From a virus, in IMG/VR virus record IMGVR_UViG_3300045988_069061: 64,000 bases of DNA; one strand, written 5' to 3'. Shown here piece after piece: positions 45,888 through 46,840 of this stretch (position 1 is the stretch's first letter; every line of letters starts with the position of its first letter). The notes under the pieces were generated by a model. That model was not told the origin of the DNA, did not search any database, and was given only the letters and a program-made list of their open reading frames with translations. The position numbers and the translations under genes are program-made.

Positions 45888-46840
45888 TGAAAACAGTATT
45901 AACCCACACAGGAAAGATTTATGTTGATACAGAACATAAACTTGAATTTCTAACCGTAGGAGACTATGGAAAGAGAACAATATCAAAGCTAATTTCCTAG
46001 GATTAACTAAGGAGATTAACGGAGTAGCTAATACTGAAGTTGACCTTAGTAAGAAGTGGGTTGCAACTATTTCCACTCAGAAAGGATGTCCAATGGAATG
46101 CAAATTCTGTGATGTTCCGAAATTTGGATTCCATGGAAACGTTTCTATTGAAGAGATGGCAAATAAGAAACATTATCAAGAATGAGACTGTTAGGAATAC
46201 TGACAGATTCAATGTGCATTTCGCAAGAATGGGAGAGCCAACTTGGAACGATAATGTGCTAGCATTTGGGATTGTTCTAAAAGAAGTAGTAAAGAGTTGT
46301 GGATTGATAGCTAAGACTGTCCATCCAGTAGTTTCTACTATGCTTCCTAGAGCTAATAGAAAACTAGAGAACTTCATACAAACTTGGTGTGGAATCAAGA
46401 ATGATTTCTATGGAGGTGAGGCAGGTCTTCAATTCTCAATAAATTCTACTAATGACGAACAGAGAAGAGAGTTATTTGACAACAAAAGTCATTCATTAGC
46501 TACTATTTCTGAAATGGCTAGTCGTTTACCTATGCCGAAAGGTAGAAAGTATACGTTGAATTTCCCAGTTACTGCACAGACTATTCTGGATGCAAAGGAG
46601 TTATCTAGACTTTTCGATAAAGAGAAGTTTATTGTGAAAATAACCCCTATTCATGAAACAGCTTCTGCTATAGAGAATGGTTTCCAGGTAACTGGCTACT
46701 CTGATTATAATGTTTATCGTCAATTCGAACAGCCTTTACTTGAAGAAGGTTGGGATGTTATAGTGTTTGTTCCATCTAAGGAGGAAGATTCTGACCGAAT
46801 TACTTGTGGGAACGCACTAATCTCTGAAGAGAAGATTTAA
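45888..46840 (+). pseudogene. rlmN-like: RlmN/Cfr-family radical SAM rRNA/tRNA adenine-C2 methyltransferase, with its reading frame split over three segments: frame C 45888-~46000, frame A ~45950-46190, frame B 46040-46840
   Basis: Frame A carries GCPMECKFC (the CxxxCxxC radical SAM cluster; compare RlmN CALECKFC). Frame B carries NVHFARMGEPTWNDNV (RlmN MGMGEPLLN) and LQFSINSTNDEQRRELFDNKS (RlmN LAISLHAPNDELR). Frame C (MKTVLTHTGKIYVDTEHKLEFLTVGDYGKRTISKLIS) resembles the region preceding the cluster. Frames C and B are the same frame; frame A is offset between them. Confidence 0.55.

Follow-up and report, generated by a model that had tools for sequence, protein, structure and literature searches.

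Directly upstream of a tRNA array, in the early region of a crAss-like gut phage of ~180 kb, lies a radical SAM gene that is spread over three reading-frame segments. The window, which is the whole 64,000-nucleotide stretch of DNA that was analyzed, is assigned to this phage group, with a terminase showing 28% identity to crAss-like terminases and 44% identity to unannotated human faecal phage contigs. In its late/structural block (145-36017, minus strand), TAG serves as a sense codon: stop-to-stop ORFs of 229-2172 codons emerge only if TAG is not counted as a stop, each late ORF contains 4-41 in-frame TAGs, and a suppressor tRNA with the anticodon CUA is encoded at 40650-40722 on the minus strand. 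Recoding of TAG of this kind in crAss-like phages is already described in at least part of the literature. The plus-strand genes from ~41.5 kb onward, including the radical SAM gene, use the standard code. The features of the locus are as follows.

45887..46840, plus strand: the whole radical SAM gene, very probably a pseudogene, 954 nt long versus 960 nt including the stop (319 codons) in intact orthologues
45887..46000, plus strand: N-terminal remnant ORF of 37 aa, from ATG at 45887 to TAG at 45998, with the final 8 residues (RTISKLIS) out of frame
45946..46185, plus strand: middle segment in frame C, +2 relative to the ATG, covering ancestral residues ~30-90 and closed by TGA at 46183-46185
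45968..45973, plus strand: 1-nt deletion, giving GGAAAG in the window versus GGAAAAG or GGGAAAG in relatives (codons GGA/GGG AAA GAG = G K E)
46087..46110, plus strand: CxxxCxxC iron-sulfur cluster motif (C-PME-C-KF-C, in GCPMECKFC), stranded in the shifted frame C
46133..46840, plus strand: C-terminal remnant ORF of 235 aa (METFLLKRWQIRN...), as in public annotations
46155..46160, plus strand: junction of a 5-nt deletion; the window has GAAGAG-ATGG-CAA, relatives have GAAGAG-ATGGA-ATGG-CAA (EEMEWQ)

An earlier reading of the sequence alone had proposed that three segments of one RlmN-like gene lie here in order, which we confirmed. Frame A runs from the ATG to the TAG at 45998, which is followed by further stops in this frame (TAA 46004 and TAG 46025); frame C, which translates as ...KWVATISTQKGCPMECKFCDVPKFGFHGNVSIEEM... 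(also given as ...ENNIKANFLGLTKEINGVANTEVDLSKKWVATISTQKGCPMECKFCDVPKFGFHGNVSIEEM...), runs to the TGA at 46183-46185; and frame A, open anew from 46028, continues to the TAA ending at 46840, with a product going from ...WQIRNIIKNETVRNTDRFNVHFARMGEP... to ...DRITCGNALISEEKI. There is no start codon upstream of the M in CPMEC in the same frame as the cluster motif. The 235-aa ORF includes the MGEP motif (46229-46240) as well as TGT at 46805-46807, which encodes the C-terminal Cys, and it is without the cluster motif. When joined, the three frames give a conceptual product that matches the phrog_24834 profile with an E value of 3e-103 and 346 bits, residues 2-315 aligning with positions 5-324 of 336. 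Since this match is end to end, the pieces belong to a single gene in collinear order, and a chance resemblance can be dismissed. Just upstream, a small ORF (MTYIVVFIILIIMWKMIEDE) at 45829-45891 ends in ATGA and overlaps the radical SAM start codon, which suggests translational coupling in an operon of small early genes. In one contig (L094), a 17-nt deletion joins this small ORF to the radical SAM N terminus.

We then compared the locus to its relatives. A scan of IMG/VR yielded 281 relatives, the best 80 of which were checked for ORF integrity. This orthologue comparison, which the sequence-only reading had put forward as a check, showed one uninterrupted ORF of ~319 codons in 77 of these best 80 of 281, and the nearest intact relative (L001) displays 98.3% DNA identity. 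In an alignment with the 15 closest relatives, just two sites account for all length differences of the window. The first is a 1-nt deletion at 45968-45973 (GGAAAAG in the intact allele), which falls within the 45950-46000 interval where a first shift had been expected. The second shift had been placed right at a TGA at 46186-46188, but that codon is really at 46183-46185 and the lesion is a 5-nt deletion ~25 nt upstream, at 46155-46160, where the intact allele reads ATGGAATGG and one unit of an imperfect tandem ATGGA|ATGGC is gone. As had been surmised, the two shifts sum to a multiple of three: because the deletions of 1 and 5 nt total -6 nt, the downstream frame is restored, while the 186 nt between them are out of frame, CxxxCxxC included. 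Since more distant relatives at 81-82% identity (L012, L013, and L041) also have the intact length, both deletions are derived.

How widespread are these lesions? An exact search of IMG/VR for both deletion junctions found none, which places this lineage outside that collection, and a megablast of the locus against GenBank phages gave no match. PADLOC likewise gave no defense-system match. One of the two metagenome matches to the 23-mer junction (L081) was discarded as a chance hit, being otherwise dissimilar to the window. Both deletions are present in a 178-kb ENA scaffold (L083, from sample SAMEA2579950) that matches the window at 99.95% identity across 20.7 kb; the two were assembled independently, although they may go back to one sample and perhaps to one library. 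The 5-nt deletion alone is found in L090 (a 179-kb scaffold, SAMEA5814150), L091 (ERZ27305766), and L092 (ERR3450980) and, together with additional lesions, in L082, these sequences coming from different studies. The junction is identical in all of them and in L083, and the deletion is the consensus in 179-kb, 23-kb, and 1-kb contigs of three further data sets. Carriers share an identical gene core, which is flanked on the 5' and 3' sides by three different haplotypes. L094 (a 703-nt contig with a coverage of 0.39) has the 1-nt deletion and not the 5-nt one. Among public proteins, the exact 37-aa product is recorded on 2 JGI/IMG contigs and the exact 235-aa product (P0001) on 3-5 public contigs, where JGI labels it "23S rRNA (adenine2503-C2)-methyltransferase." Truncated products are common in the family, with 124 distinct ones in one cluster versus 747 members in the 98%-identity full-length cluster.

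The gene is also broken elsewhere, at other positions. A 13-nt deletion disrupts it in L085 and L082, a 1-nt deletion at position 111 in L086, and deletions of 67+17 nt in L089. In L098 (IMGVR_UViG_3300045988_058617), the gene extends over three frames via two shifts whose positions are unlike those in the window. L123 has a 1-nt insertion in the gene, L038 has a 2-nt insertion near its end, and L054 and L055 also carry lesions at other places. When relatives were picked through a neighboring gene instead of the radical SAM gene, 3 of 13 were broken. Three candidates for frameshifted alleles (L084, L087, and L088) were rejected, since what makes them look truncated is a stretch of Ns in the scaffold or a change from CAG to TAG. 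The latter is seen in the Logan contigs L087 and L088 (codon ~65, locus 2794-3753), where the Gln of ISTQKGC is encoded by TAG and not CAG, and gene callers shorten the protein to 250 aa. This change would be silent if the phage reads TAG as Gln and would then be a small natural confirmation of the reassignment.

The two deletions do not stand alone in this genome. We compared the 42-64 kb region with 13 relatives, defining a private deletion as one of at least 4 nt that is missing from at least 4 other genomes. Between 44800 and 63300, the window has ~40 private deletions versus 18 private substitutions in ~17 kb, with 12 of the 18 substitutions in one 1-kb tract. Most relatives have 0-9 private deletions, while L098 has 22 and is missing three tRNAs. 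The deletions measure 5-16 nt, with a mode of 6, and their junctions display a mean microhomology of 3.4 nt, versus 0.79 ± 0.17 for random placement. None falls in the genes encoding proteins of 657 aa (52114-54087), 394 aa (56406-57590), or 172 aa, and multiples of three account for 14 of the 20 deletions inside ORFs versus 8 of 22 elsewhere (Fisher p = 0.037). In the late region (19.4-36.1 kb), only 4 gaps over 17 kb separate the window from a 99.6%-identical relative, and three of these have lengths divisible by three. Small ORFs were affected, with frameshifting deletions of 7-16 nt relative to L096 at 50193-50483, 48853-49092, 55679-56029, and ~59800; for instance, loss of 8 nt at ~50426 leaves the window with 96 aa of an ORF that is 176 aa long in L096. 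The tRNA array was affected too: we counted 13 tRNAs in the window versus 20-21 in 22 kb in relatives, and seven of those found intact in relatives could not be detected here.

Broken tRNA sites: 48525-48646, 51268-51341, 54612-54726, 55513-55568, 56095-56199, 57593-57696, 61458-61558
Broken tRNAs: Tyr-GTA copy 2, Trp-CCA, Gln-TTG, Met-CAT, Leu-TAG, Cys-GCA copy 1, another Met-CAT

Five of these seven carry one to four deletions (mostly 6-10 nt) and 0-4 substitutions, while Trp-CCA and the first Met-CAT break off at the point where the window ceases to be homologous to the relative. A strict co-loss of the radical SAM gene and tRNAs was considered and discarded, since L090 and L091, which have the 5-nt deletion only, keep six flanking tRNAs. 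Overall, the picture resembles pseudogenes produced by slipped-strand or microhomology-mediated deletion in bacteria and phages, in which each deletion removes one copy of a short repeat plus any spacer, close relatives are intact, and other strains carry independent disabling lesions. It differs from them in that deletions are unusually dense relative to substitutions (~40 versus 18) and narrow in size (mode of 6 nt). The radical SAM lesions are thus part of a lineage-wide set of microdeletions that has apparently been filtered by selection. Slippage at hairpin-rich DNA on which selection is relaxed is one possible cause of this set; a mutator state and scars left by end joining following nuclease attack are others. 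Our literature search on microdeletions in crAss-like phages retrieved nothing relevant.

Taken together, these findings make it highly probable that a gene of an RlmN-like phage radical SAM family was recently inactivated here by two short repeat-mediated deletions, leaving a pseudogene. The sequence-only reading had offered a pseudogene as one alternative, and this is the one that the evidence favors. Judging from the sequence context, both deletions look slipped-strand or microhomology-mediated: one base would have been dropped from the run GGAAAA and one unit from the tandem ATGGA|ATGGC, each at a short direct repeat. Translation from the ATG halts after 37 codons, making a functional enzyme impossible. 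Both lesions belong to the set of ~40 short microhomology-flanked deletions of the early/tRNA region, in which large conserved genes are spared. One point counts against the pseudogene, namely that selection for a full-length product would likewise be expected to leave the frame restored. About half of second frameshifting indels would restore the frame by chance, and the apparent compensation would be a coincidence, since each deletion is found singly elsewhere and either one alone already kills the gene.

A bolder reading is that the frameshifts are not ordinary decay but the scars of a lineage-specific burst of short deletions, in which seven tRNA genes, the RlmN-like gene, and a few small ORFs were lost while essential genes were spared. 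We hold this only tentatively and think it rather unlikely. Such a burst might come from a phage replisome in a microdeletion-prone "mutator" state or from repeated nuclease attack (e.g., by CRISPR or another defense acting on early-region DNA), followed by microhomology-mediated end joining, which would leave scarred survivors. If the burst reading were true, the joint loss of tRNAs and of the RlmN-like gene heading their array would hint at tRNAs encoded by the phage itself as targets of the enzyme, and it would then be a class-A-like methylase without a resolving cysteine.

Less probable still is that the phage gene is intact and that both deletions are artefacts, either of the assembler or of library preparation, in which a polymerase may slip or switch templates. 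The lesions do lie at short repeats, where polymerases slip, and some public contigs of this clade are riddled with short deletions: L082 (ENA UOJM01010364, 3689 nt) shows 41 gap openings versus the window in 3.8 kb, five of them inside the radical SAM gene, and L098 has its 22 private deletions. The ratio of ~40 private deletions to 18 substitutions is also far from a normal neutral spectrum, and a technical cause in some data sets keeps a small share of the probability. However, the pair of deletions is found again in the independently built L083 scaffold, and the 5-nt deletion is the consensus in contigs from three other data sets. This recurrence across independent assemblies and studies makes the two indel errors that had been proposed for the window unlikely. 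Moreover, an artefact would not spare large conserved genes and 17 kb of late genes, nor would it favor multiples of three in ORFs. Overall, the assembly does not look error-prone, given the few gaps in its late region. Homopolymer errors are no feature of it either: in this assembly, the affected run is just 3-4 A and late genes are uninterrupted for up to 2172 codons with TAG as sense.

It is very improbable that the gene is split but useful, with the 235-aa C-terminal ORF or the 37-aa peptide being functional and the broken allele being kept by selection. In keeping with this idea, the allele with the 5-nt deletion was recovered from several samples and with three or more flanking haplotypes, and the gene core is nearly free of substitutions among carriers. 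A low level of substitutions is, however, also seen in intact alleles, where it reflects recent common ancestry. The 235-aa product has no CxxxCxxC, hence it is incapable of radical SAM chemistry, and carriers have accumulated more C-terminal lesions (deletions of 8, 10, and 7 nt in L082 and others in P0006, P0013, and P0015).

The last alternative is programmed recoding, with a -1 shift near 45970 and then an RF2-like +1 shift at or before the TGA at 46183-46185, yielding a full-length enzyme. The sequence-only reading had likened the second shift to RF2-type frameshifting, and the frame is indeed regained with two shifts, the single-tRNA site A_AAG (45970-45973) is weakly slippery, and the second frame closes with TGA and is continued in the +1 frame, as in prfB (RF2). 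In contrast to prfB, the locus has no CUU_UGA_C-type site and no Shine-Dalgarno-like or G-rich element upstream of the TGA (context CAA_GAA_TGA_G), and the change of frame comes from the 5-nt deletion ~25 nt upstream. Nor does the stretch to which the first shift would be limited (45946-45998) contain a zero-frame X_XXY_YYZ heptamer, and a homopolymer of at least 4 is missing from both shift windows. Under the prfB-type pairing rule, tRNA-Glu on GAA would re-pair with AAU, and a shift at the TGA would swap the conserved EWQIRNIIKN for ANKKHYQE. The arrangement is not conserved either: genomes with 98% identity are single-frame, with the extra base at the first site, where they read straight through, and 5 more bases upstream of the TGA, which therefore lies out of frame, so the deleted state is derived and not a conserved signal. 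Since each shift is also found without the other, where compensation is impossible, and since lesions in other genomes lie at different positions, recoding is the least credible of these readings and is rejected. Two forms of stop codon read-through were rejected as well. Rescue by the phage suppressor tRNA at the TAG is ruled out by the TAA that follows at 46004, and TGA recoding is ruled out because reading TGA as sense yields no long ORFs.

We wondered what the intact enzyme might be. The search for its family was exhaustive and retrieved 780 representatives of 50%-identity clusters at E ≤ 1e-3; the family counts more than 7000 database proteins, mostly from gut phages. Membership in the radical SAM superfamily, whose core is a partial TIM barrel, is evidenced by the [4Fe-4S]-binding motif CxxxCxxC (CPMECKFC, out of frame in the window) and by an AlphaFold model that is a radical SAM barrel. 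The conceptual product scores 22.4 bits against Pfam Radical_SAM (PF04055), under the gathering score of 29.5, and PF04055 is among the precomputed matches of many intact relatives at 85-87% identity. The model of an intact orthologue, which has a pLDDT of 92.9, finds RlmN in all of its top 10 PDB matches (E ~1e-10, TM 0.58-0.65), the next radical SAM protein having an E value of 3.6e-5. RlmN (the Escherichia coli dual-specificity 23S rRNA A2503/tRNA A37 C2-methyltransferase; PDB 3RFA and 5HR7) is hence the best structural match. Alignment to RlmN and Cfr had been proposed as a check, and the family profile is collinear with both over ~260 residues, with E values of 9e-20 to 3e-18. Motifs in common are xSxQxGC-x3-C-x2-C, MGEP, an (S/F)S(L/I)(H/N)(A/S)xxxExR-type motif, an IP/TPxNP strand, and the C-terminal CG(Q/N). 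The Cys of this last motif (Cys309 of the intact protein, in NCGQ/TCGN, codon 46805-46807 in the window) aligns with CGQL of RlmN/Cfr and hence with their methyl-carrier Cys355/Cys338. Among 34 diverse full-length members, the only Cys conserved in at least 90% are the three of the cluster and Cys309.

Two defining features of RlmN/Cfr nevertheless fail. First, RlmN has a Cys at position 118, 7 residues before the first cluster Cys, that resolves the crosslink between enzyme and RNA. At the aligned position, the subfamily of the window has Thr61, and a Cys is found in 0 of the 34 members, which mostly have Ile, Thr, or Asn. Cys118 of RlmN is needed for release of the methylated RNA, and the E. 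coli C118A mutant remains covalently bound to its RNA. PDB entries 5HR6 and 5HR7 show crosslinks of this kind. Second, the N-terminal helical RNA-binding domain of 60 residues is missing, with the phage protein being 319 aa versus 384 for RlmN. The profile alignment begins at RlmN residue ~86-117 and Cfr residue 67, and the phage protein has instead a lead of ~55 residues before the core that is β-rich (E2-5, E9-14, and E19-25). Curated thresholds for RlmN and Cfr are missed by far. The best NCBIfam match is RlmN, with 39.3 bits for TIGR00048 versus a cut-off of 290 (and 25.2 versus 633 for NF008396), and the Cfr models score 27-29 bits versus cut-offs of 530-550 (27.2 versus 550 for TIGR04432 and 29 versus 530 for NF000424). 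The locus therefore belongs to a radical SAM family with an RlmN-like fold that is RlmN-like and not RlmN. As far as can be told from sequence and structural model, the family shares RlmN's fold and probably its cluster and methyl-Cys chemistry. Of the earlier proposal of an RlmN-family enzyme, what stands is that RlmN and Cfr are the closest characterized relatives. Assigning it methylation of A37 or A2503 goes too far, with thresholds missed and both the resolving Cys and the N-terminal domain absent, and the JGI label is an over-annotation. Our search of the literature for a phage RlmN-like enzyme or for this phage family found nothing relevant. In a cultured phage, Bacteroides phage Versailles, the gene is annotated as "radical SAM domain-containing protein" (WAK79139.1) and is single-frame, with 52% identity over 98% of the length. 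In Versailles (58 kb), it lies in the replication module, whereas in the ~180-kb crAss-like phage of the window it heads the tRNA array and is twice frameshifted.

These findings have consequences for annotation: the locus is no new recoding site, pipelines should mark it as a pseudogene, and the public name "23S rRNA (adenine2503-C2)-methyltransferase" given to both fragments overstates what is known. Although the finding as posed is an ordinary one, two side observations might repay follow-up. One is a family with an RlmN-like fold that keeps the C-terminal Cys without the Cys that releases the RNA, which raises the question of its chemistry. The other is the existence of microdeletion-rich lineages in which tRNA and accessory genes are selectively disabled, which offer a natural read-out of dispensable accessory functions and possibly of a specific mutational or defense-escape process.

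Minor observations were made on the genomes themselves. A suppressor-like tRNA with the anticodon TTA, which would read TAA and, by wobble, TAG, is found in L098 (2581-2650), L102 (2332-2402), and L090 (321-385), while a CTA suppressor stands at the corresponding place in L096, L129, and L001. Finally, comparison with L083 revealed a tandem direct repeat at 42838-42941, with an offset of 48 nt and two identical stretches of 56 nt, which sits in a mosaic segment (~43.0-44.86 kb) that is non-homologous to most relatives.
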